Shown here one piece after another: positions 1,971 to 52,184 of a DNA stretch of 56,715 nt. This DNA is from a virus. Its lineage: Duplodnaviria > Heunggongvirae > Uroviricota > Caudoviricetes. The first letter of the stretch is position 1. Each line of letters opens with the position of its first letter. Below the pieces are notes generated by a model. It worked only from the letters and a program-made list of their open reading frames with translations. It had not been told where the DNA came from and made no database searches. The stretch lies in the IMG/VR virus record IMGVR_UViG_2622736468_000005. One strand, written 5' to 3'. A program made the translations under genes and the position numbers.

Positions 1971-2187
1971 ACCGCAGCACGTTCTTGCTTAAGACGTGCT
2001 GCGGCATAATCCCAATGATTACTCCCTGACAGGGTTCGTAGGCCACTCAATATCAGGTGCAGTTGATGTATCAACACGGTTCAGCAACACCCGATACTTT
2101 TTCCAGGCTTCCAGCAATGAGGTTTCTTCCTCCGTTGCGATTTCCAGATCTACAGCATCCTGAAGTGGCGCAATATGCTCACTGGCT
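1971..2187. repeat. direct repeat copy 2 (3' end of intact tfa plus terminator hairpin)
   Basis: Matches 920..1135; perfect hairpin ccgcagcacg(ttcttgcttaaga)cgtgctgcgg immediately after tfa stop. Confidence 0.8.
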
Positions 2188-2603
2188 ACCTGCATCAGGC
2201 TGTTTTTTGTTTCTTCCGCCTCCCGGATCCGGAACAGTTTTTCTGCTTCCGTATCCTTCACCCAGGCTGTGCCGTTCCACTTCTGAAACTCCCCTTCCGG
2301 GGATAACCAGGTAACATTTTCCGGTAACGGACCGAGTTCAGAAATAAATAACGCGTCGCCGGAAGCCACGTCATAAACCGTTTTACCCCGATGATCTTCA
2401 ACGAGATGCCACGATGACTCATCACTGTTGAAAACGGCCACAAAGCCAGCCGGAATATCTGGCGGTGCAATATCGGTACTGTTTGCTGGCAGACCTGTAT
2501 GAGGCGGAATATATGCGTCACCTTCACCAATAAACTCATTGGTTCCAGCCAGTAGATTATAAATTTTTATGGTCCGTGATTGTTCACTCATTCTGAATAC
2601 CAT
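2019..2603 (-). CDS. tfa: tail fibre assembly protein (lambda Tfa-like chaperone)
   Basis: 194-aa ORF directly downstream of stf with overlapping start/stop (2603); position and size as in lambda stf-tfa. Confidence 0.8.
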
Positions 2604-5600
2604 TATGCAAGCCTCACAATATAGTTAAATGCGATGTTTTTGACGGTGTTTTCCGCGTTACCAGCAGCGTTAACGGTGATGGTGTGTCCATGTGAACCAA
2701 TCGCAACCGAGTGCGTATGCGCACCAATACCTACAGTATGTGCGTGTGCACCTGCGCTTGCAGCAGTACCCGATACAGAGTGCGTATGAGCGCCTGCAGA
2801 AGAAGTGTTAACACTGTATTTAGAATAATCAGGTGATCCACTTCCCGGAGCACCTTTGGTGCCACCTGAAACAAATGTTATCGAATGGGTATGTGCACCG
2901 GCTGAAGCAGCCGTACCGCTAACACTATGGGTATGCGCCCCGGTGTTATTCGTGGATTTAGTGCCGTAATCAAACGACGATGTGGTTTTCGTCCCCAAAT
3001 CCGTACTGGATGCGCTGGCGCTGTGGGTGTGCGATTTAATGCCGTCCTGTTCCTGAGACAATACGGCCCGACCACTGGCAGGTTTGCCCTTAATCGTCCA
3101 GCCACGCATATCAGGGATCACGCCTGACGGATAAGCGGCTGCAAGTTTCGGGTATGCAGATTTGTCAAAAGTCTGCCCCTGCATCAGGGCATAACCAGAC
3201 GGAACGGTATCTGATGGCCACGGGATTGGTGCGCCGACTGGGTAGCTTTCTGGTGGAAGATTTTTCGAGGTATAAACTTCTGCCCAGTCTTCCTCAAAAC
3301 CATAGCCATCTCTTGAGGAACGGTAGAACAGACCTCCATTTCTGTAATGCGCCTTCATCCGCAGGGTCCGGCAACTTCCGACTCCGGTATAGAAGTTAAC
3401 CAGAATATAGCTGTTGCCAGAGCGGGTGACATTGTAAGCGCCTGATTCGGCATTCCATGGAACGCCACCATCCGCATCGGCATATGTATCCGTTGCCCTT
3501 CTGGCAAAAGCAGCCACATGCGCGGCGGTTAAAGTAATATCTTTTGAACCATCAAACTCAACCCCAGAAACCCGTCTTGGCGTTTGCAGCTTTGTTGCTG
3601 TCAATGCGTTACCGTTCAGACTTGCAGACAGCTTGGTTCCAATAACCAGTTCGCCGGTTGCGTTATCAATAGCAAACGGTCTTAATGTATTCCATCCACC
3701 ATAAACATCACCTTGATTGGTAAGCAGCAGGTAAGTTTTAGCGCCATCATTACGCCATAATGCCCCATACTCCCCACCTATCATTCGAATCTGATTACCA
3801 CCACGCGCTACAATTTCGTCTGTGGCAAAAAGTTTTTTGCACGACAAGTTATCGTTAACGATTAACGAATGGGACTCATAAAAACCACGCCCACTCTTAA
3901 AATCAAGGATAACGTCCGCCGCGATACATTCAGTCGCCGGATTTGTTGCCCCAAACTTATAGGTCGTATCATTAACAACGAGATCAGCACCAGGTGCGGA
4001 TATTGACAGGCCATCTTCGATAAACGCAAAAACAGGGAAAGCAGCGCCATCAACATAGAACACAGAGCGCAAATCATCGCCCTTATTACTCATCATTATT
4101 GAGTGGATGGCTCGTTCATTGTTTTGATATTGCCAGAACATTCCATAAGCATAACGCCCCCTGTCAGTCCAGCCACCAGGCATAACAAATCCGTTAAACT
4201 CGCAGTTATTCATCGGATCGCCTGCGGTTCGCGTTGCCGTGGTGATAATGACCCTTGATGCCAGTTCGCTTACTGAGCCAGCAGAACGCATAACAACAAC
4301 AGGATAATATTTTCCAGATGTTGCACCTGCAGGAGCGTTAACCCGCACATAACGCATACCACGTTTATCAGCAAAGTCTGTTTTACTGACCGCGTTAATG
4401 TTGTTCAGGAAGCGTCCCTTATCGGGTATATCAGCGCCGTTCTGGTCTTTCTGCAGACGTTTCTCTGCATTGTCATAGGCTGCTTTTACTGCCTTTGGCG
4501 TTGCCGCCAGCGTTTCAGACGTGCTGTTGGTCGCGCTGCTGAGCTGTACTATCCCCTTTTTCGTCGTGCTCGCATCCTCAAGCGCCACGGCGGATGCAAT
4601 ATCCTCTGCCCGTTTTGCCGCTGTCTCGGCGCGCGTTGCCGCGGATTCCGCCGTACTTTTGCTCTGAGCTGCCGCCGTCGCACTGCCAGCTGCCTCTGTC
4701 GCCTTCGTGGATGCCGTCGTGGCGCTGCCCTTTGCTGCTGACGCCTGTCTGGTCGCCTCATCTTTTGAAGCAGACGCAGATGATGCCGATGACGCCGCCG
4801 AACTGGCGGACGATGCGGCAGCCGTTTTTGAGGATTCTGCGCTGGTTTCCGAGGCTTTCGCGTTCGTTTCGGATGTCTTCGCTGCCTCTTTTGAGGCCGC
4901 CGCATCCCGTGCTGAAGTGGCTGCTTCTGACGCTTTCGTGGTCGCGGTGGATGCAGAAGTGGCTGCTGATTGTTGTGACGCTGCCGCATTCGTTTCTGAC
5001 GTTTTCGCCGCACCGGCACTGGTAGCCGCCGCGCTTTTTGAGGACTCTGCAGCGGCAGCACTTTTTGATGTTTCAGTAGCCTTTGTTGATGCCGTTCCTG
5101 CGCTGGAAGACGCTGACTGAGCCGACATCGCGGCCTGCCCGGCTGATGTGCTGGCTGCACGTGCTGAGCCTGCAGCATCAGTCGCATGGGTTGCCGCCTC
5201 ACTGGCAGATATGCTGGCATCGCTGGCTGACTTCTTCGCGGCTGCCGTGTTCTGTGCCACCGCGGACGCGTTACGCGCCACCTCTTCCACCATCAGTTCA
5301 AAACGGCGCAGTGCCTCAGGACGGGCATCATCCTCCGTCATGGCACCGAGAAAATCATTCAGCGTACCTGGTCTGGAACCTTCATAGACGGTAATGGTCC
5401 CGGCATGTGAAGGCGGAAAACCTTCAACCAGCAGGGTGACGCTGTACTGACCATGCTCAACATCCATGCTGTAACGTCCGGCTTCATCCGGATTTTCAGA
5501 GGCCACCGTGTTCACCACCACCGTGCTGCTGGTTCGTCTGGCCTTCAGCACAATGGTGCAGTTCTGTACTGGTTTTCCTGTGCCATCTTTAAGCACGCCA

Positions 5601-12473: not shown

Positions 12474-13610
12474 TCAGAACTGATAAGTCATACCAACGGC
12501 AACGATATTATCCGTTGCAACACCTGCATCCTGGGTAAACTGACTTTCATCAATCAGATTGATTTTATAATCAACATAGGTGGACATATTTTTATTAAAA
12601 TAATATGTTGTACCCACATCAATATATTTAACCAGATCCTGATTGCCATAGTTTTTACCACCGACAATTATATCCTGAGCACGAGACTGCAGGAACGCCA
12701 GAGATGGACGCAAACCGAAATCAAACTGATACTGTAATACCGCTTCAAAGTTCTGGGCTTTATCTGCCACCCCTTTGTCGCCAAAGGTCGTCATATTCTG
12801 AGTCTCAGAATATATTGTCGCCAGATAAATGTTGTTGGCATCATATTTAAGCCCGGTGCCCCACATCTCAGCGTGTTTACCTTTTGCAACACTGCCGGAA
12901 TCAACAACTGTTTGAGTACCGTTTACTGTTTGCGTACCATTCAGGCCTTTCACCTGATTGTTGGTACGGTCTGCGTTAGTATATGCAGCCACGATACCAA
13001 AACCTTCATATTCATAACTGGCAGAGAAACCATAACCATCACCATTAGCTTCCTGAAGGTCATCACGTTCATTCTTGCCCTGATACTGAGCTGCAAAATT
13101 CAGGCCATCAACAAGTCCAAAGAAATCAGTATTACGGTAAGTCGCCACACCAGAAGTACGGGCAGTCATGAAGTTATCGGTCTGAGTCCAGCCATCACCA
13201 CCAAACTCTGGTAATACGTCGGTATAAGCACCAACATCATACGCAATACCATAGTTACGACCATAATCAATGCTGCCAAAGTCACCGAACTTCAGACCTG
13301 CAAACGCCAGACGAGTCTTATTACCCGCAGCACCGTCTGATTCAGTTTTATTACCAGAGAACTGATATTCCCACTGACCAAAACCGGTCAGTTGATCATT
13401 AATCTGAGTTTCACCTTTAAAGCCCAGACGTGCATATGTCCGATCACCATCATTTCCCTTATCGCTGGAGAAATAATGCAGTGCCGTTACACGTCCATAC
13501 AGATCAAGCTTATTGCTATCTTTGTTATATACTTCCGCAGCCTGCGCACCAGCTGCAAAAATCACAGCCGCAGCCACGGCTGAAAGTGCCACTGTCATTT
13601 TTTTCATCAT
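12474..13610 (-). CDS. general bacterial porin of the OmpC/OmpF/PhoE family (prophage moron)
   Basis: 378-aa ORF with signal peptide ([12 protein letters not shown]), porin signature stretches ([23 protein letters not shown]-terminal ...VAVGMTYQF); AT-rich flanks; inserted between tail genes L and M. Confidence 0.85.
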
Positions 13611-31433: not shown

Positions 31434-33302
31434 TTATGATGATGCCGGTGCATTTATCTCCAGCACCAGACTTTCTATCTCAACGCCATACGCTGCATTT
31501 TTTGTAACATCCGTCAGCGTCAGCGCATTCAGCCCCAGTGTCAGACTGTCTTTTATGACCTGGAATGCCGGGCCAACCAGTCCATTCAGTTTCGGAGTAA
31601 CCGTGGCACTGCCGGCGGTGAACACCAGCTCCAGCGTCTGCCAGTCGTTACTGTAATTCCCGAACTCGCCCAACTTTGTGTTTCCGGCTTTCTTGTGATG
31701 CATCAGATTCAGTTTGCCGTCTGTGGTCTGGGTGAAGAACGACATCAGGAACGGGTTACCAGTCCCGGTCATCGCCACGACGTCAGGTAACGCTACATCG
31801 GTATACAGATAAATTCCCAGACCGAACTGGTTGTTGGTCAGTGCGCCTGACAGTCGAAACTTACAGCTCAGTCTGCCACCCCGTGTCAGCAGGGAGACTG
31901 CGTCATCCACCGGGCGCGTCAGGGACCAGGCTTTATTGCTCTGCTTGGCGATCTTAAATACACCATCTGACAACTGAATTCCGCCATTCTTAATGCTCCA
32001 GCCCTGCGCAGCAGCATCTCCGGCTGTCGGCAACAGGGAGATTGTGCGTACGGATGCATCTTCAGACGGCCCCGATGGCGTGTCGCCGCCGGGCGAGGGT
32101 TTGATTTCCGGTGCCTTACCACTGATGAAGGCTGAGGTGCGACCGGCTACGTTCAGAATAGCAGTTGCCATACGATCCGGAATAATGCTCCTGCGCGCCC
32201 ATGAACTGAAATGTGTCGGGCGGTTTGATGATACCTGGTTTCCATTCGTTCTCGATGCCGCACCGTAATATCCTGATGCCGGAATATCCGGATCTTCTGC
32301 CGGTGCGTTAGTGGCGGTATTGACGCCGTTACCGTCTGTCATGAAGGGCACAAAATAAACGCCCTCACTCTCCCTGTTTTTATACCCTCCGTACACGGTG
32401 TCGTACTGGGTAGCGTATGTATTTTTCCAGTAATACGTCGTGTCACCACAAATCCACGGCACATCTGCAGCACTGCCACCATGACACTGCGCGTTAAACA
32501 CAGTGAGGTCAGCACGAAACTGCTTCAGCATGGCTGTAAACAGCGCAGGTTGCTGTGCGTAGGTGGCGGCGCTCATGTCAAACTCTCCCTGCATCCAGCA
32601 CACCGCCAGCAACACATTTTTCGGGTTCTTCTGTAATGCAGCTTTAGTGCGCGCAATCAGGTCCTGATATAACGGTTTACCCACACCCCAGCGTGCCGAA
32701 TCCTGGCTGGCCCCCGTGTCCGCACTGAATGTCCCCTCCGCGCCCTGGGTGAATGCCGAACCACCACGACAGCATGGTACCAGCAGGATCCCCGCGTTAT
32801 TCGGGATATACGGAAGCAGTTTTTTGGCAATATGTAAGCCCTGGCCGACACAGCCGTACTGCCCTTTGCTCAGGTCTGCCTTCGGATGATTCAGCGTACT
32901 CATATCCTGCACATCATGCAGGCAGTGGTCGGCCGGAATAATATCGTTATATCTGCAGGCAGCCCCACCCGGCGTCACTGTACTGCGGCGCGCCAGCTGT
33001 TTAATGCGCGGATCCGGAGCATCGTATGAATCCGGCAGCGGAAGCCCTTCACCGTAAGCCATGGCATTGGACTGCCCGGCCAGTACGATGACGTAGTACC
33101 ACTCCGGCTCAGTTGCACCACTGACGACCACATCACCTTCTGCTGCAATCGCCTGCATCAGGGTATAAGGGGTTATGGCCACCGGACTACCAAACGGCTG
33201 CCAGCCCTCTTTCAGTTTATGTGTCAGCTTTTCCGCAAGATCTGACGGCGACGCCGCCCTGACAACATCATAGTGTTTAAATGCCATGGTTCTTTCCACC
33301 AT
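31434..33302 (-). CDS. prophage-encoded sialate O-acetylesterase-like protein (NanS-p / YjhS family, SGNH-type)
   Basis: 622-aa ORF with VIVLAGQSNAMAYG esterase motif; located between tRNA/Q region and lysis genes, as nanS-p is in Stx-type prophages. Confidence 0.65.
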   Translation of the reverse strand: MVERTMAFKHYDVVRAASPSDLAEKLTHKLKEGWQPFGSPVAITPYTLMQAIAAEGDVVVSGATEPEWYYVIVLAGQSNAMAYGEGLPLPDSYDAPDPRIKQLARRSTVTPGGAACRYNDIIPADHCLHDVQDMSTLNHPKADLSKGQYGCVGQGLHIAKKLLPYIPNNAGILLVPCCRGGSAFTQGAEGTFSADTGASQDSARWGVGKPLYQDLIARTKAALQKNPKNVLLAVCWMQGEFDMSAATYAQQPALFTAMLKQFRADLTVFNAQCHGGSAADVPWICGDTTYYWKNTYATQYDTVYGGYKNRESEGVYFVPFMTDGNGVNTATNAPAEDPDIPASGYYGAASRTNGNQVSSNRPTHFSSWARRSIIPDRMATAILNVAGRTSAFISGKAPEIKPSPGGDTPSGPSEDASVRTISLLPTAGDAAAQGWSIKNGGIQLSDGVFKIAKQSNKAWSLTRPVDDAVSLLTRGGRLSCKFRLSGALTNNQFGLGIYLYTDVALPDVVAMTGTGNPFLMSFFTQTTDGKLNLMHHKKAGNTKLGEFGNYSNDWQTLELVFTAGSATVTPKLNGLVGPAFQVIKDSLTLGLNALTLTDVTKNAAYGVEIESLVLEINAPASS

Positions 33303-33547: not shown

Positions 33548-33883
33548 ATGAAGTGGATTGTGATTGATACAGTTATCCAGCCATCATGCGGAATATCTTT
33601 TTCAGTCATATGGAGTAAAATAAAATTAATAATCTGGTATCAATCGGATGCTTTCTTACCTCCTGAAAGTATATTTACACTGACTCACACAGGCATCATG
33701 CTCAATAACAAAGTGCTACCTGTAACCATTTACAACGTAGTACCATTCAATAAAACATTCTGGAATTTAATCAAAAACAGCCAGGAATGCCCTACAAATA
33801 CAGATAACGTATTGAATGAATGCTTTAATAACCGTTGCACTCTGCAAATATGTCCTTATGGGCTAAAACAACAAAGTCCATAA
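33548..33883 (+). CDS. hypothetical Cys-containing protein, very AT-rich orphan gene
   Basis: 111-aa ORF; upstream TTTACA-17 bp-TATACT promoter-like sequence and AAGGA RBS; no recognisable family. Confidence 0.35.
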
Positions 33884-33918
33884 GCAGTTTACTCACATCT
33901 GACAAAATCAATATAAAC

Positions 33919-34140
33919 AGCCCCTCCGGAGAGGGGCTGGAGAGTGGCGCTATGTGCCATTGCATGGTGCCGGGTGCCTCCCGGTGAATTCAGTACCAGC
34001 ACCTGAATCCGCGATTATCCCATATACCTACTCGCTGATTACCCCTCCGCACAGGGGGATTCACCATGCGAAATTTTTTAACAAACTTCCCGCCGGCCAG
34101 ACAATAATCGCCAGCCTGAATTATGAGCAACGTGGCATTT
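33919..34140. repeat. repeat element copy A (~220 bp) beginning with perfect 20-bp palindrome agcccctccggagaggggct
   Basis: Shares palindrome and several conserved blocks (gcatggtgcc..cctcccggt.aattcag, gggggattcaccatgcga, ttttaacaaa, cagacaat) with copy B; compensatory changes in stems. Confidence 0.55.
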
Positions 34141-34381
34141 TACGGGAAAACTGTTTTCTGCAGTAAAAAGGCCCGCCGGAGCGAGCCTGGAAGGATAGCG
34201 GTCATGTGATGCCGGTTTCCCGGTAACTCAGCATCGGTATCTGAGTCAACGTTTTCTCTACTGGGTCATTTCCGATACGTTCCGCCTTCCGGCAGACTTT
34301 CATCACGTCAGAAAATATAGCACCCTGAGTAACAGGACAGTACTCAGAATTCAGGAAACTGTGACACATCCTGCACAGAAA

Positions 34382-34600
34382 AGCCCCTCCGGAGAGGGGC
34401 TGAAGTATAGCCTAATTTCTGTCTGTCGCATGGTGCCAGGGGCCTCCCGGTAAATTCAGCCTGTCTACTGAATTTGCATGTTCTCTGGATCATACACTTT
34501 GCCAGATGCCCCGCCGCTGAGGGGGATTCACCATGCGATGTAATTTTTAACAAATTCTCCGGCAGCCAGACAATCATCAAGCTGTGGAATTGTGAGGTAT
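34382..34600. repeat. repeat element copy B (paralog of 33919..34140)
   Basis: Same palindrome and conserved blocks; hairpin aaattcag-cctgtcta-ctgaattt. Confidence 0.55.
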
Positions 34601-34749: not shown

Positions 34750-34826
34750 GAAACAACAGGAGTGCAACCACAGCTGCTTAGAAGGCAATTGCTCTGTCCG
34801 GCTGAGCTAACAACGCATGATGCAGA
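34750..34826 (-). other. degenerate tRNA-Arg(UCU)-like remnant
   Basis: 5' half has tRNA-like D-arm and CCTTCTAAG anticodon loop; T-arm and acceptor 3' strand do not pair. Confidence 0.3.
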
Positions 34827-34829
34827 TAA

Positions 34830-34906
34830 TGGACCGCCATCGGGGACTTGAACCCCGCGCAGCCAGCTTCGAAGGCTGGCGCTCTATCCCGATGAGCTAA
34901 TGGCGG
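34830..34906 (-). tRNA. tRNA-Arg (anticodon read as TCG)
   Basis: 77-nt cloverleaf on minus strand: acceptor CCGCCAT/ATGGCGG, D-arm GCTCATCGGGATAGAGC, anticodon loop CTTCGAA, T-arm CGGGGTTCAAGTCCCCG, 3' TCCA. Confidence 0.7.
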
Positions 34907-34913
34907 TATGTGA

Positions 34914-34989
34914 TGGTGGCCCTTGCTGGATTTGAACCAGCGACCTGGCGATTATGAGTCGCTCGCTCTCACCACTGAGCTAAAGGGCC
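34914..34989 (-). tRNA. tRNA-Ile2 (anticodon CAT, ileX/ileZ-like) or tRNA-Met
   Basis: 76-nt minus-strand sequence GGCCCTTTAGCTCAGTGGTGAGAGCGAGCGACTCATAATCGCCAGGTCGCTGGTTCAAATCCAGCAAGGGCCACCA; 7-bp acceptor stem, CTCATAA loop. Confidence 0.8.
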
Positions 34990-35038
34990 GGAAGCAGAAT
35001 AATAATGGTGCGTAATTAATTCTGCAATCTCATCCGTT

Positions 35039-36088
35039 TCAAACGATTAAATCCTGAACTTCCCTGACTGTCTGCTCAAAACGTCCGGTCTCCAGTTCAA
35101 CGCCAATCGCACGACGCCCGAGCGCCAGTGCAGCTTTTACCGTTGAACCTGAGCCCATAAAAAAATCTGCAACCAGGTCACCCGGACGACTGCTTGCGCT
35201 GATTATCTGCTGCAGCATTTCTGCCGGTTTTTCGCACGGATGTTTCCCGGGATAGAACTGCACCGGTTTATGTGTCCACACATCCGTGTACGGCACCTGC
35301 GCCGTCACACCAAAATACCGCCGCAGATGCTTATATTCACTCTGCAGCTCCACATACTGCCGGTTCAGTGACGTATACGTATCCACCAGCTGGTGGTGGG
35401 GCTTTTCCAGTTCACCGCGCTGATGTTTCTCTTCTGCCACCCGGGCAAACAGCGACTGTAATTTCAGATAATCGCTTTCGTTCGGTAGCTGCCACTGACT
35501 GGCACTGAACCAGTGCGACACCATGTTTTTCTTTCCTGTGGCATCTGCAATCTGTTTTGCCGTTATCCCCAGGGCCGCGCGCGCATCACGAAAGTAAGAA
35601 ATCAGCGGGGCCATCACATGCTGTTTCAGTGCACTGCCCTTCGCCGCATACCCGGCATCTTTCGGACGATACGGCCCCTGATAATGTTCCGCGAACAGAA
35701 TGCGCTCTGTGGCGGGGAAATACGCCCGCAGGCTTTCCTTGTTGCATCCGTTCCAGCGTCCGGACGGCTTCGCCCAGATAATATGGTTCAGCACACTGAA
35801 GCGTTCACGCATCATGATTTCGATATCAGATGCCAGGCGATGACCACAGAACAGGTAAAGACTTCCGGCAGGTTTCAGCACCCGCCAGAACTGCGCCAGA
35901 CACTGGTCCAGCCACTTCAGGTAATCATCGTCGCCCTTCCACTGGTTATCCCAGCCCTCAGGCTTCACTTTAAAGTACGGCGGGTCCGTGACTATCAGGT
36001 CAACAGAATTTTCGGGTAACGACCGGATAAATTCCAGGCAGTCGGCGTTGATTAACTCACAACTGGATATTTTTACAGTATTAAGCAT
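35039..36088 (-). CDS. orphan DNA methyltransferase (N6-adenine/N4-cytosine type, DPPY motif)
   Basis: 349-aa ORF with catalytic DPPY (LIVTDPPYF) and C-terminal SAM-binding FxGxG (FFMGSGST); no adjacent restriction enzyme. Confidence 0.8.
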   Translation of the reverse strand: MLNTVKISSCELINADCLEFIRSLPENSVDLIVTDPPYFKVKPEGWDNQWKGDDDYLKWLDQCLAQFWRVLKPAGSLYLFCGHRLASDIEIMMRERFSVLNHIIWAKPSGRWNGCNKESLRAYFPATERILFAEHYQGPYRPKDAGYAAKGSALKQHVMAPLISYFRDARAALGITAKQIADATGKKNMVSHWFSASQWQLPNESDYLKLQSLFARVAEEKHQRGELEKPHHQLVDTYTSLNRQYVELQSEYKHLRRYFGVTAQVPYTDVWTHKPVQFYPGKHPCEKPAEMLQQIISASSRPGDLVADFFMGSGSTVKAALALGRRAIGVELETGRFEQTVREVQDLIV

Positions 36089-36662: not shown

Positions 36663-37484
36663 CTATCGCGTTACCCTCTTTAACTGCCGCTCCGCCCATG
36701 CCTCTTCAATGTCAAACCGAACCACCAACGTATCGTAAAAGCGTTTCACTGATTTTTTCCACGTATCAAGCGTGATAGCACTCGTCACTTTGCATATGGC
36801 ATTAAATGCCTCCGTTGATGGCAGCCTTTCACAGCCACGACCACCACAACGCTGGCAATCTCTGATAACAGGCATACCACGTTTTACCGACTCTTCACGA
36901 TGAATGGCGACACCACGCCCACGGCAATCCTTACAGGCGGTGGAAACCTCACCCTTTCCGCCACACTCCGGACAGGCAACTTTTACCACCTCCCTGACTT
37001 TTTTCCATTCTTCCCAGTAAGACGGATACACGCCTTTTGTGCACTTTGCCCACACTGGTGGCTTACCATCCGGATACTGGATCTTGTTTGTAAAAACCTC
37101 GCTTTCAATAAATTTTTTTCCGTGACAGCAGGGGCACTGTTTTTTGCTCGCCGCGCTACGGGCATAATCTTCAAACGCATACGAAGCCATAATGCGCATC
37201 ACTACCGGTTTTATTTCTGCCGGAAGTTTTCTCAACGCCGCCACACGATCGCACCGACTGAGTGCATAATCTGCCAGTAATTCTGTTGCCCGCGCCCTGT
37301 CATTCATACTGATGCCCATTTTCCCCAGGAACGCAGAAACCCCCATCTCAGCCCGATTCTGTGTCATGCCCTGCGCGGCCATCACATCAGTGATACTCAG
37401 CGCATCTTTTGACGTTGAGGCCGATGCATCGGTCAGGCCAGGGGATTTTGGGGAGTAGTATTTCGGTAAATCTTCCAGTTTCAT
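36663..37484 (-). CDS. Q: late-gene antiterminator Q (zinc-binding type)
   Basis: 273-aa ORF with multiple CxxC pairs (CPCCHGK, CPECGGKG, CKDCRGRG, CQRCGGRG); positioned after rusA and before late operon. Confidence 0.7.
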   Translation of the reverse strand: MKLEDLPKYYSPKSPGLTDASASTSKDALSITDVMAAQGMTQNRAEMGVSAFLGKMGISMNDRARATELLADYALSRCDRVAALRKLPAEIKPVVMRIMASYAFEDYARSAASKKQCPCCHGKKFIESEVFTNKIQYPDGKPPVWAKCTKGVYPSYWEEWKKVREVVKVACPECGGKGEVSTACKDCRGRGVAIHREESVKRGMPVIRDCQRCGGRGCERLPSTEAFNAICKVTSAITLDTWKKSVKRFYDTLVVRFDIEEAWAERQLKRVTR

Positions 37485-37855: not shown

Positions 37856-38132
37856 CAGTCACCTCTTTTACCCAAGCACGCCAGTTGCAAAGGCGTGATC
37901 AAGAAAACGAAAAATTAAATCAACCTGAGAACCATGCTTTTCTTCGAACGCCAGAGGATCCGCATGAAGCTCGTTGTGATGCTCCCGACACAGCGGTAGC
38001 GTGAAAATATCGTGAGATTTTGTCCCCATTCCGCCCTGACCATGACCAATCAGGTGATGGGGATCGTCGGCTGGCTTATGAACCGCCCCGGGAATCCTGG
38101 AGACTAAACTTCCTGAGAAAGAGGTAAACAGG

Positions 38133-38459
38133 ATGACTAAAAATACTCGTTTTTCCCCCGAAGTCCGTCAACGGGCAGTCCGTATGGTTCTGGAAAGTCA
38201 GAGCGAATATGACTCACAATGGGCGACAATTTGTTCCATTGCTCCAAAGATTGGCTGTACGCCGGAGACTCTGCGTGTCTGGGTTCGCCAGCATGAGCGG
38301 GATACCGGGGGCGGTGATGGAGGGCTCACCACCGCTGAACGTCAGCGTCTGAAAGAGCTGGAGCGTGAAAATCGTGAACTGCGCCGCAGTAACGATATCC
38401 TTCGCCAGGCTTCCGCTTATTTTGCGAAGGCGGAGTTCGACCGCCTCTGGAAAAAATGA
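38133..38459 (+). CDS. IS629 transposase OrfA (HTH)
   Basis: 108-aa [25 protein letters not shown]...; slippery A AAA AAT at its end. Confidence 0.85.
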
Positions 38460-39346
38460 TGCCACTGCTGGATAAGCTGCGTGAGCAGTACGGGGTCGGA
38501 CCGCTATGCAGCGAACTGCATATTGCCCCGTCAACGTATTACCACTGTCAGCAACAGCGACATCATCCGGATAAACGCAGTGCCCGTGCGCAGCGCGATG
38601 ACTGGCTGAAGAAAGAGATACAGCGCGTATACGATGAAAATCACAAGGTATACGGTGTGCGTAAAGTCTGGCGTCAGTTGTTACGGGAAGGTATCAGAGT
38701 GGCCAGATGCACTGTGGCACGTCTCATGGCGGTTATGGGACTTGCCGGTGTTCTCCGGGGTAAAAAGGTCCGTACGACCATCAGCCGGAAAGCCGTTGCC
38801 GCAGGCGACCGCGTAAACCGTCAGTTCGTGGCAGAACGACCTGACCAGCTGTGGGTGGCTGATTTTACTTACGTCAGCACATGGCAGGGCTTCGTCTATG
38901 TGGCGTTCATCATTGATGTGTTTGCCGGATACATCGTGGGGTGGCGGGTCTCATCGTCCATGGAAACGACATTCGTGCTGGATGCACTGGAGCAGGCGTT
39001 ATGGGCCCGTCGACCGTCCGGCACGGTCCATCACAGTGATAAAGGTTCTCAGTATGTATCGCTGGCCTACACACAGCGGCTTAAGGAAGCCGGATTACTG
39101 GCATCAACAGGAAGTACAGGCGACTCGTATGACAACGCGATGGCGGAGAGCATCAATGGTCTTTACAAAGCGGAGGTAATACACCGTAAGAGCTGGAAAA
39201 ACCGTGCAGAAGTGGAACTGGCCACACTCACGTGGGTGGACTGGTATAACAATCGACGATTGCTGGAAAGGCTGGGCCATACTCCTCCGGCAGAAGCAGA
39301 AAAAGCTTATTATGCTTCCATCGGAAACGATGATCTGGCAGCCTGA
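38456..39346 (+). CDS. IS629 transposase OrfB (DDE integrase domain)
   Basis: 296-aa ORF overlapping orfA in -1 frame; DDE-type catalytic core. Confidence 0.85.
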
Positions 39347-40229
39347 GTTCACAGATAAAACACTCTCCAGGAAACCCGGGGCGGTTCACTTACCACAACA
39401 CGCACACGGCTGTGTCTTCACCCAGCGTGTGTATTTCTCGTTAACCCAGCGGCGACGTTTAGGTCGTTTCATGAAAGATTCCGGAGACTCAGGATCAACG
39501 GCAATGCTGACCACCGTCTCTTCCTGTGGCGGGTTTTGCTGGTGGGCGTGAGGCAGCGGCGCAAGATTTTTTGTGCGCTGCTTCAGTATGCTGGTGGCGG
39601 TCTGCTCTCCCGGTACGATGTCGCTTTCACGGTACATTGAGCGGATTTTTTCCGCACGCAACCCCAGCGAACGACGTAATACCGCTTCCGGTAGCGCGTC
39701 CGCCACCTGATTGCGGACCGCCCACCAGGATAATTCAGCCAGCGATAATTCCCGTTCCTGCGAGCCATTCATTGCATGGCGTATGACGTCAATCATCCAT
39801 GCAGACAGGTTTTGGTGAGCAAGTTGCCCGAGTGATTCGGAGGTCTGGTCGCGCAGCTGGTTGTCGCAGTGCCAGCACAACACCATTGCGCCGGTACCAT
39901 AACGGTGAATGACGGTTTCACTGTGGTGATAATCGCCGTGTGGCCACTGGCAGGATTTAACATGGCGCAGTAACCAATCAGACAATGCGCCAGCGCCACC
40001 AGCAGCACGAATCACTCGTTCGTCGCTGAAAAATGGCAGTAATGATTTATCCTCCGCCAGCGGCTGGCGAACGGCAGGAACGACCCCGGACGGCAGATTA
40101 CGCATGCTTTTCGGTTCCGGCTCCACCAGTACCCGGGTATTGTGGAATACCGGCATGGATTCACGGCCCGGCTTAACGATCACCAGCCCGAGTTCCGGTA
40201 CCAGAACAGGTCGAAGTAATACCCGCACG

Positions 40230-42791: not shown

Positions 42792-42947
42792 TTACTCCTC
42801 AGGTTCGTAAGCTGTGAAGACAGCGACCTCCGTCTGGCCGGTTCGGATTCGTACCTCGCAGAGGTCTTTCCTCGTTACCAGTGCCGTCACAATGACGGTT
42901 AAACAGATGACGATCAGGGCGATTAGCATCGCCTTTTGCTGCTTCAT
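42792..42947 (-). CDS. hokD: Hok/Gef-family small membrane toxin (HokD/RelF-like)
   Basis: 51-aa ORF MKQQKAMLIALIVICLTVIVTALVTRKDLCEVRIRTGQTEVAVFTAYEPEE with AAGGAG RBS; track ORF 42792..43004 carries an in-frame N-terminal extension. Confidence 0.8.
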   Translation of the reverse strand: MKQQKAMLIALIVICLTVIVTALVTRKDLCEVRIRTGQTEVAVFTAYEPEE

Positions 42948-43238
42948 AGCCTGCTTCTCCTTGCCTTTCGGCACGTAAGAGGCTAACCTACGTGTGTAGA
43001 GCATAGATATGGCCTCAGATTAATGTTAAGCGTCTTGCCGGACGCGTAATGTTAACTGGGGCTTTTCTCTATCTGCCTTTTGGTGTTCATGCCTGAGACA
43101 GATAGCCTCAAGCACCCGCTGCAATTCTACTTAACTCTCCTTTTCCCGCAAACCGTTTTTATCCCCAGCGGCAAATCGAATACACCACCAGCGCCACCGC
43201 CATCGCAATTCCTACCGTTGTTAATGCTTCAGGCCAGG

Positions 43239-52126: not shown

Positions 52127-52184
52127 TTTCTGGTGACGTTTGGCGGTATCAGTTTTACTCCGTGACTGCTCTGCCGCCCTTTTT
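52127..52184 (+). ncRNA. dicF: DicF small RNA (cell-division-inhibitor sRNA)
   Basis: Sequence tttctggtgacgtttggcggtatcagttttactccgtgactgctctgccgccc + T-run matches DicF as I recall it; immediately upstream of dicB. Confidence 0.6.

Follow-up and report, generated by a model that had tools for sequence, protein, structure and literature searches.

The tRNA locus described here is very probably the ileZ–argN–argO cluster of lambdoid Stx-type prophages, in which ileZ and argN are intact and argO has been inactivated by a deletion of ~0.66 kb. It lies in a stretch of 56,715 nt (56.7 kb), the whole of which will be referred to as the window. The order of the genes and their position between the gene for antiterminator Q and the slot occupied by stx or other cargo agree with those of phage Stx2a_F723 (AP012533.1) and with the published description of stx regions (PMC7366253), whereas not all three tRNA genes are intact, as argO stops after nucleotide 42. 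The cluster has been recognised in Stx-type lambdoid prophages ever since the first genomes of Stx2 phages, and it is thus already known; this type of locus is already annotated, the exact junction occurs in RefSeq annotation too, and the significance of the findings outside correct annotation is small. What is added is that the third, unannotated element is pinned as a clean deletion junction between nucleotide 42 of argO and codon 8 of tciB, and that this junction delimits the stx-equivalent cargo slot on the left, which makes it usable as a lineage marker for the slot variant. A limited literature search on ileZ, argN and argO, DUF3927, TciB, and the tRNA genes of 933W and rare codons revealed nothing relevant.

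Two Intact tRNA Genes

tRNA genes were called with ARAGORN and with the Rfam model RF00005 (gathering score 29 bits). Across the 56.7-kb window ARAGORN called exactly two tRNA genes, both on the minus strand. The cluster comprises the following features.

34914-34989, minus strand: ileZ, tRNA-Ile2 with anticodon CAT, 76 nt, CCA encoded, discriminator A (ARAGORN, Rfam)
34830-34906, minus strand: argN, tRNA-Arg(UCG), 77 nt, CCA encoded, discriminator U, beginning 7 nt after ileZ
34775-34816, minus strand: argO′ remnant, nucleotides 1-42 of a tRNA-Arg(UCU), 41/42 match to argO of Stx2a_F723
34774-34775, minus strand: deletion junction, argO nucleotide 42 to tciB codon 8 (blastn against phage Evi)
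34655-34771, minus strand: ′tciB, small hydrophobic DUF3927/TciB-like ORF, 38 codons in RefSeq ("DUF3927 family protein")

The preliminary description had proposed two intact cloverleaves on the minus strand, to be checked with tRNAscan-SE or ARAGORN. ARAGORN was run, and its calls together with those of Rfam confirmed strand, coordinates and the anticodons CAT and TCG of both genes. The ileZ gene matches the tRNA model over its full length (model positions 1-71) with 72.5 bits (E = 5.6e-14), and its predicted fold is more stable than that of shuffled sequences (z = −4.0). Its assignment as tRNA-Ile2, which had likewise been proposed, was borne out by several comparisons. All 76 nucleotides are identical to those of the gene annotated as ileZ in Stx2a_F723, RefSeq labels the identical loci tRNA-Ile, and at loci with 100% identity the RefSeq annotation reads tRNA-Ile, tRNA-Arg, DUF3927 family protein and DNA-methyltransferase. 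The body of the tRNA is 68/76 identical to K-12 ileX and 54/78 to metT/metU, and the acceptor stem (GGCCCUU/AAGGGCC) carries the pairs C4-G69 and C5-G68 as in ileX, unlike metT. These two pairs are reportedly determinants for TilS. With its CAU anticodon, the ileZ transcript would require lysidinylation by the host TilS in order to read AUA. The label tRNA-Met, which ARAGORN and several GenBank phage records give to this tRNA from the anticodon alone, would turn it into an elongator tRNA-Met. We consider this reading to have next to no chance of being correct, as the ileX-like body and acceptor pairs speak against it, RefSeq/PGAP assigns tRNA-Ile in thousands of genomes and the curated records of Stx phages name the gene ileZ.

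The argN gene is also a full-length match to RF00005 (model positions 1-71; 58.4 bits, E = 4.3e-10), and its minimum free energy fold is a perfect cloverleaf (z = −2.4 versus shuffled sequences). The anticodon, which had been given with some reserve as TCG, was read as tcg at position 35 by ARAGORN and is also TCG in argN of Stx2a_F723, to which the gene is identical in 75 of 77 positions (97%); RefSeq uses the label tRNA-Arg. Read from the sequence, the D-loop AUCGGGAUA places an A at position 20, so that the gene combines A20 with C35 and G36 of the UCG anticodon in an intact cloverleaf, consistent with a tRNA-Arg(UCG). To our knowledge, the tRNA set of K-12 includes no tRNA-Arg(UCG) counterpart of argN, and argN thus represents extra decoding capacity for CGA and CGG.

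The argO Remnant and the Deletion Junction

The third element had been described as a degenerate tRNA-Arg(UCU)-like remnant that retains the 5′ half and the anticodon loop and has lost the T-arm and acceptor pairing. These losses and retentions were confirmed, but the element proved to end at a sharp deletion junction rather than to be degenerate. It is also real yet shorter than described: the minus strand from 34816→34775 reads GCGTTGTTAGCTCAGCCGGACAGAGCAATTGCCTTCTAAGCA, and bases 34750-34774 belong to the neighbouring DUF3927 ORF and lie outside the tRNA remnant. The only difference from nucleotides 1-42 of Stx2a_F723 argO is G37A, and the similarity ends abruptly at 34775, where megablast matches to intact argO (from about 2400 genomes) end as well. 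Kept are the 5′ strand of the acceptor stem, the D-arm and, of the anticodon arm, the 5′ strand, the CUUCUAA loop and 3-4 nt from the 3′ strand; nothing is left of the variable loop, the T-arm, the 3′ strand of the acceptor stem and the CCA. As a tRNA, the element was not called by ARAGORN and gave only a partial match to RF00005 (14.2 bits, model positions 10-42, E = 5.6), below what membership of the family demands. The 77-nt stretch at this position folds no better than shuffled sequences (z = +0.26) and forms neither an acceptor nor a T stem. Decay of argO by point mutation was considered and rejected, since the identity is 41/42 up to nucleotide 42 and random beyond it.

Alignment by blastn with phage Evi (LR597642.1) located the breakpoints. 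Window positions 35027→34775 align with Evi 1556-1802 (ileZ to nucleotide 42 of argO) and positions 34774→34647 with Evi 2462-2589 (from tciB codon 8 onwards); in the window nothing separates these blocks, whereas 659 bp lie between them in Evi. Relative to Evi, whose identity to the window is only 81-85% on both sides of the junction and which serves as a model of the ancestral layout, not as the parent, the junction corresponds to one clean 659-bp deletion. What the window lacks in comparison to Evi is the 3′ part of argO, an ORF of 143 aa and 21 nt from the start of tciB, and the breakpoints in Evi show no visible microhomology. A deletion of ~0.66 kb took the 3′ 35 nucleotides of argO, the neighbouring ORF and the start of tciB, and fused nucleotide 42 of argO to codon 8 of tciB. 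The 3′ half of argO was not found anywhere in the 56.7-kb window when up to 3 mismatches were allowed, and a search of the window for the T-loop motif returned ileZ and two chance matches only.

On the other side of the junction, RefSeq lets the truncated tciB ORF start with a GTG located 4 nt past the junction. The ORF scores 42.6 bits against Pfam PF13064 (cut-off 25), placing it in the DUF3927/TciB family of small membrane proteins, although the match covers only profile positions 11-39 of 53. Full-length relatives have 52 aa (TciB of phage 434) and 55 aa (TciB of phage Evi). In the alignment the first codon of the ORF corresponds to codon 8-9 of the Evi gene, so that the first ~7 codons are gone; the native start codon and ribosome-binding site are missing, and the ORF also ends early. 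With 38 codons and homology to Evi from codon 8 onwards, it is not a full-length DUF3927/TciB gene with its own start and N-terminus. We infer that the argO remnant is without function.

Frequency among E. coli Genomes

Frequencies were determined among 5426 complete E. coli genomes.

ileZ, always full length: 3057/5426 genomes, 7527 places
argO at ≥80% coverage: 2256/5426 genomes
argN: 959/5426 genomes
80-nt junction, full coverage: at least 325/5426 genomes
501-nt region at ≥80% coverage, which takes in the variant with a degenerate argN: 823/5426 genomes

That ileZ is kept far more widely across E. coli than argO or argN suggests that, within the cluster, decoding of AUA is under the most consistent selection.

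Alternative Readings of the Junction

Instead of a deletion, the junction might reflect an integrase-type event in which a mobile cassette (tciB–STnc100–iraM) entered argO at its anticodon region and thereby created the remnant. tRNA genes are classical targets of integration, and mosaic sequence, including both STnc100 copies and the AT-rich iraM-like gene, follows downstream of the junction. Nevertheless, the 3′ half of argO is absent from the window, even with 3 mismatches allowed, so that insertion of an element into the tRNA gene is unlikely. The sequence to the right of the junction is moreover the interior of an ORF (tciB codon 8) and not the end of an element, there is no integrase nearby, and Evi and mEp460 possess an intact argO with tciB further downstream, so that a simple deletion suffices. 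Taken together, these points leave the insertion reading with a very small probability.

It is similarly improbable that the retained 5′ half of argO is functional, be it as a structured leader or an RNase P/E processing site for the shortened TciB, or as a tRNA-half small RNA. If this were the case, processing at argO′ could provide a new 5′ end and a translation start for a shortened TciB-like peptide, and, instead of a neutral scar, the junction would be a functional gene fusion that has spread to hundreds of E. coli prophages. In its favour, at least 325 complete E. coli genomes share the junction, which occurs in two cluster backgrounds, with argN intact as in the window or degenerate as in vB_EcoS-813R8, and an ORF called by RefSeq begins 4 nt after it. 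The spread can, however, be explained by identity by descent and recombination, no Shine-Dalgarno sequence precedes the GTG, the remnant folds no better than shuffled sequences (z = +0.26), there is too little variation for an analysis of covariation and the ORF lacks either end of the family profile. A scar left by deletion, neutral in its effect, is hence the reading that we retain for the argO′::′tciB junction.

The stx-Equivalent Slot

The tRNA genes belong to the late region and are embedded in the following features.

36663-37484, minus strand: antiterminator Q (Pfam Antiterm, 166.7 bits)
36580→36565, minus strand: terminator-like hairpin after Q (terminator scan)
35039-36088, minus strand: N6/N4 DNA methyltransferase (Pfam N6_N4_Mtase, 152 bits), directly upstream of the tRNAs
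34373-34566, minus strand: STnc100 copy 1 (Rfam RF02076, 138 bits), apparent downstream edge of the cargo slot
33909-34097, minus strand: STnc100 copy 2 (Rfam RF02076, 132.5 bits)
33548-33883, plus strand: iraM-like anti-adapter gene (NCBIfam NF007393 IraM, 162 bits, cut-off 121), 35% GC
31434-33302, minus strand: nanS-p-type SASA carbohydrate esterase (Pfam DUF1737, SASA and DUF6645; RefSeq "SASA family carbohydrate esterase")

On the minus strand the order is thus RusA, Q, the terminator-like hairpin, a 65-codon ORF, the N6/N4 methyltransferase, ileZ, argN, argO′::′tciB and two copies of STnc100. Beyond the second STnc100 follow the iraM-like gene on the plus strand, the SASA/nanS-p-type esterase, a holin, YdfR and a lysozyme. 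A DNA methylase gene also precedes the tRNAs in many Stx2 phages, whose records list it under the same match. The STnc100 copies, separated by 275 bp, fall within the interval from the tRNA cluster to the iraM-like gene, and a strong terminator hairpin ends each of them.

In Stx2a_F723 the order is Q – ileZ – argN – argO – stx2A – stx2B – STnc100 – esterase. STnc100 directly follows stxB in the Stx2a phage, where it adjoins AsxR, and it directly follows tciB in Evi and mEp460. From these gene orders in Stx2a_F723, Evi and mEp460 we conclude that the segment from argO to STnc100 is an exchangeable slot, which holds stxAB in Stx2 phages. Judged from its position in the sequence, STnc100 appears to mark the downstream edge of this slot. 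tRNA genes have been described between q and stx, in a set that varies with the stx subtype, and nanS-p has been described downstream of stx, as the gene following stx in Stx2a/c/d phages (PMC7366253). The earlier placement of the tRNA genes next to an stx-equivalent locus is therefore well supported, both by the synteny with Stx2a_F723 (tRNAs, slot, STnc100 and esterase, in this order) and by that publication.

Codon Usage and Proposed Expression of the tRNA Genes

Codon usage per 1000 codons was compared between 78 greedy ORFs of the window (16,828 codons), 39 annotated K-12 core genes and a K-12 region treated with the same ORF caller.

ATA: window 9.1; K-12 core 3.0; K-12 region 3.6
CGA: window 6.7; K-12 core 3.1; K-12 region 3.3
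CGG: window 15.3; K-12 core 3.6; K-12 region 5.7
AGA: window 6.8; K-12 core 0.8; K-12 region 2.2
AGG: window 6.4; K-12 core 0.6; K-12 region 1.5

In the prophage ORFs, ATA, CGA and CGG are enriched 2-4 fold and AGA/AGG 3-10 times. ileZ and argN would add to the scarce host tRNAs for codons that the prophage genes use in excess; argN would read CGA and CGG, and argO, when intact, would read AGA and AGG. The iraM-like gene contains 6 ATA in its 111 codons and none of CGA, CGG, AGA and AGG, and it is located on the strand opposite to the late operon. The proposal that tRNAs for rare codons support the expression of the AT-rich cargo genes thus holds for the prophage as a whole and only weakly for the AT-rich cargo: it is reasonable for ileZ and for late genes generally, and weak for Arg tRNAs serving AT-rich cargo. 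Since argO was lost although AGA and AGG remain enriched, the benefit of this codon supply is dispensable. The host possesses argU and argW.

With respect to transcription, a promoter-like element was noticed by eye.

34999-35027, minus strand: promoter-like TTGCAG-17 nt-TATTAT, ending 9 nt before ileZ

The element is situated in the 49-nt gap after the stop codon of the methylase gene. Both hexamers are kept in Stx2a_F723, the −35 hexamer is TTGCGG in vB_EcoS-813R8, and the bases of the spacer vary. A scan for consensus promoters on the minus strand near the tRNAs found nothing; TTGCAG-17-TATTAT falls below the threshold, with only 3/6 matches in the −35 hexamer. This putative element might allow basal, Q-independent expression of the tRNAs in the lysogen. 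In Stx2 phages, stx is expressed by Q-modified polymerase upon induction. As the tRNA genes are located downstream of Q and of a tR′-like terminator, Q-modified polymerase would transcribe them on induction as well. Transcription would start at the weak promoter-like element or take place within the Q-antiterminated late transcript; RNase P and 3′ exonucleases of the host would subsequently mature the tRNAs, CCA being encoded, and host enzymes would modify them.

Other Features of the Prophage

The nearest prophage, which is found in CFSAN061761, was used as a guide for annotation. The prophage in the window looks defective, with a frameshift in terL and an IS insertion. The gene for the terminase large subunit (25169-26830, minus strand) carries a 1-bp deletion at about 26567 compared to the CFSAN061761 prophage, which breaks the reading frame after about 88 codons; DNA packaging may consequently fail, unless the deletion is a sequencing error. 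An IS3-family element (about 38030-39390; orfA 38133-38459, orfB 38456-39346) interrupts a DUF968 gene and contains an ALIL frameshifting pseudoknot at 38414-38530. The IS3/DUF968 junction was found in 0/5426 complete E. coli genomes, the best match being 85.7%.

Among the tail genes, between a tape-measure/gpM-like gene and the gene for minor tail protein L, lies an OmpC-family porin gene (12474-13610, minus strand, 378 aa; Pfam Porin_1 474 bits, NCBIfam OmpC subfamily 505 bits). In 91 complete E. coli genomes the annotation shows this arrangement too. The porin represents a cargo gene of the prophage (moron) and could change the host surface or phage receptors. A hok/sok-type toxin-antitoxin locus is present at 42942-43117 (minus strand; sok RNA 117 bits), with hokD in the matching RefSeq prophage, and the small RNA DicF with dicB at 52128-52179 (plus strand); both are typical features of Qin/Rac-like immunity regions. 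An Rfam match to the "IS009" RNA (2062-2260, minus strand, 229 bits) is located inside the region of the tail-fibre assembly gene. The left end of the window, past the tail fibre genes, holds on the plus strand (1-558 and 1296-1964) a Rha-family regulator and an ORF for a SAM-dependent methyltransferase.

Comparison with Known Clusters

Among the closest counterparts are the clusters of Stx2-converting phages such as Stx2a_F723, which resembles the window in gene order, strand, spacing and position (after Q and the methylase, before the cargo slot, STnc100 and the nanS-p-type esterase), with 100% identity in ileZ and 97% in argN. It differs in that the window carries argO cut after nucleotide 42 and the truncated tciB/DUF3927 ORF instead of stx2AB; a second STnc100 copy and the iraM-like gene are present in the window. 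Phage 933W and Sakai Sp5 are further Stx2-converting phages with an ileZ–argN–argO cluster. In the stx regions of Stx2e phages, a two-tRNA variant of this cluster (Met/Ile2 and Arg) is located between q and the cargo, a likeness that is drawn from their description (PMC7366253).

Phage Evi, with the order Q – ileZ – tRNA-Lys(UUU) – argO – 143-aa ORF – tciB – STnc100 – holin, displays the layout without the deletion: its argO is intact, its TciB has the full length of 55 aa, and both flanks of the window junction align with it. In contrast to the window, it carries a tRNA-Lys gene in the place of argN, and the 659 bp between nucleotide 42 of argO and codon 8 of tciB are present. In the K-12 chromosome, ileX shares the anticodon arm and acceptor pairs 1-5 with ileZ, and argU is identical to intact argO in 55/77 positions with the same anticodon loop; ileZ and argO differ from them as phage-borne extra copies.

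The identical argO′::′tciB junction, followed by two STnc100 copies and iraM, is found in phages vB_EcoS-813R8, -640R1, -733R4 and -716R1. In these phages and in mEp460_ev081, unlike in the window, the middle of argN is replaced and the gene is no longer callable as a tRNA. The altered sites (4233-4313 of the compared vB_EcoS-813R8 sequence and 3755-3835 of that of mEp460_ev081) retain the 5′ and 3′ ends of the acceptor stem and gave no call by either ARAGORN or Rfam. Replacement of the argN core represents a second, independent route of decay of the Arg tRNAs, and ileZ is still 100% identical. In mEp460_ev081, argO is intact, with A37 as in the window remnant, and a tciB-like ORF follows some 500 bp later. 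All four combinations of an intact or degenerate argN with an intact or deleted argO are represented among the loci compared, by the window (argN intact, argO deleted), Stx2a_F723 (both intact), vB_EcoS-813R8 (argN degenerate, argO deleted) and mEp460 (argN degenerate, argO intact). This distribution fits the mosaic recombination that is usual among lambdoid phages.
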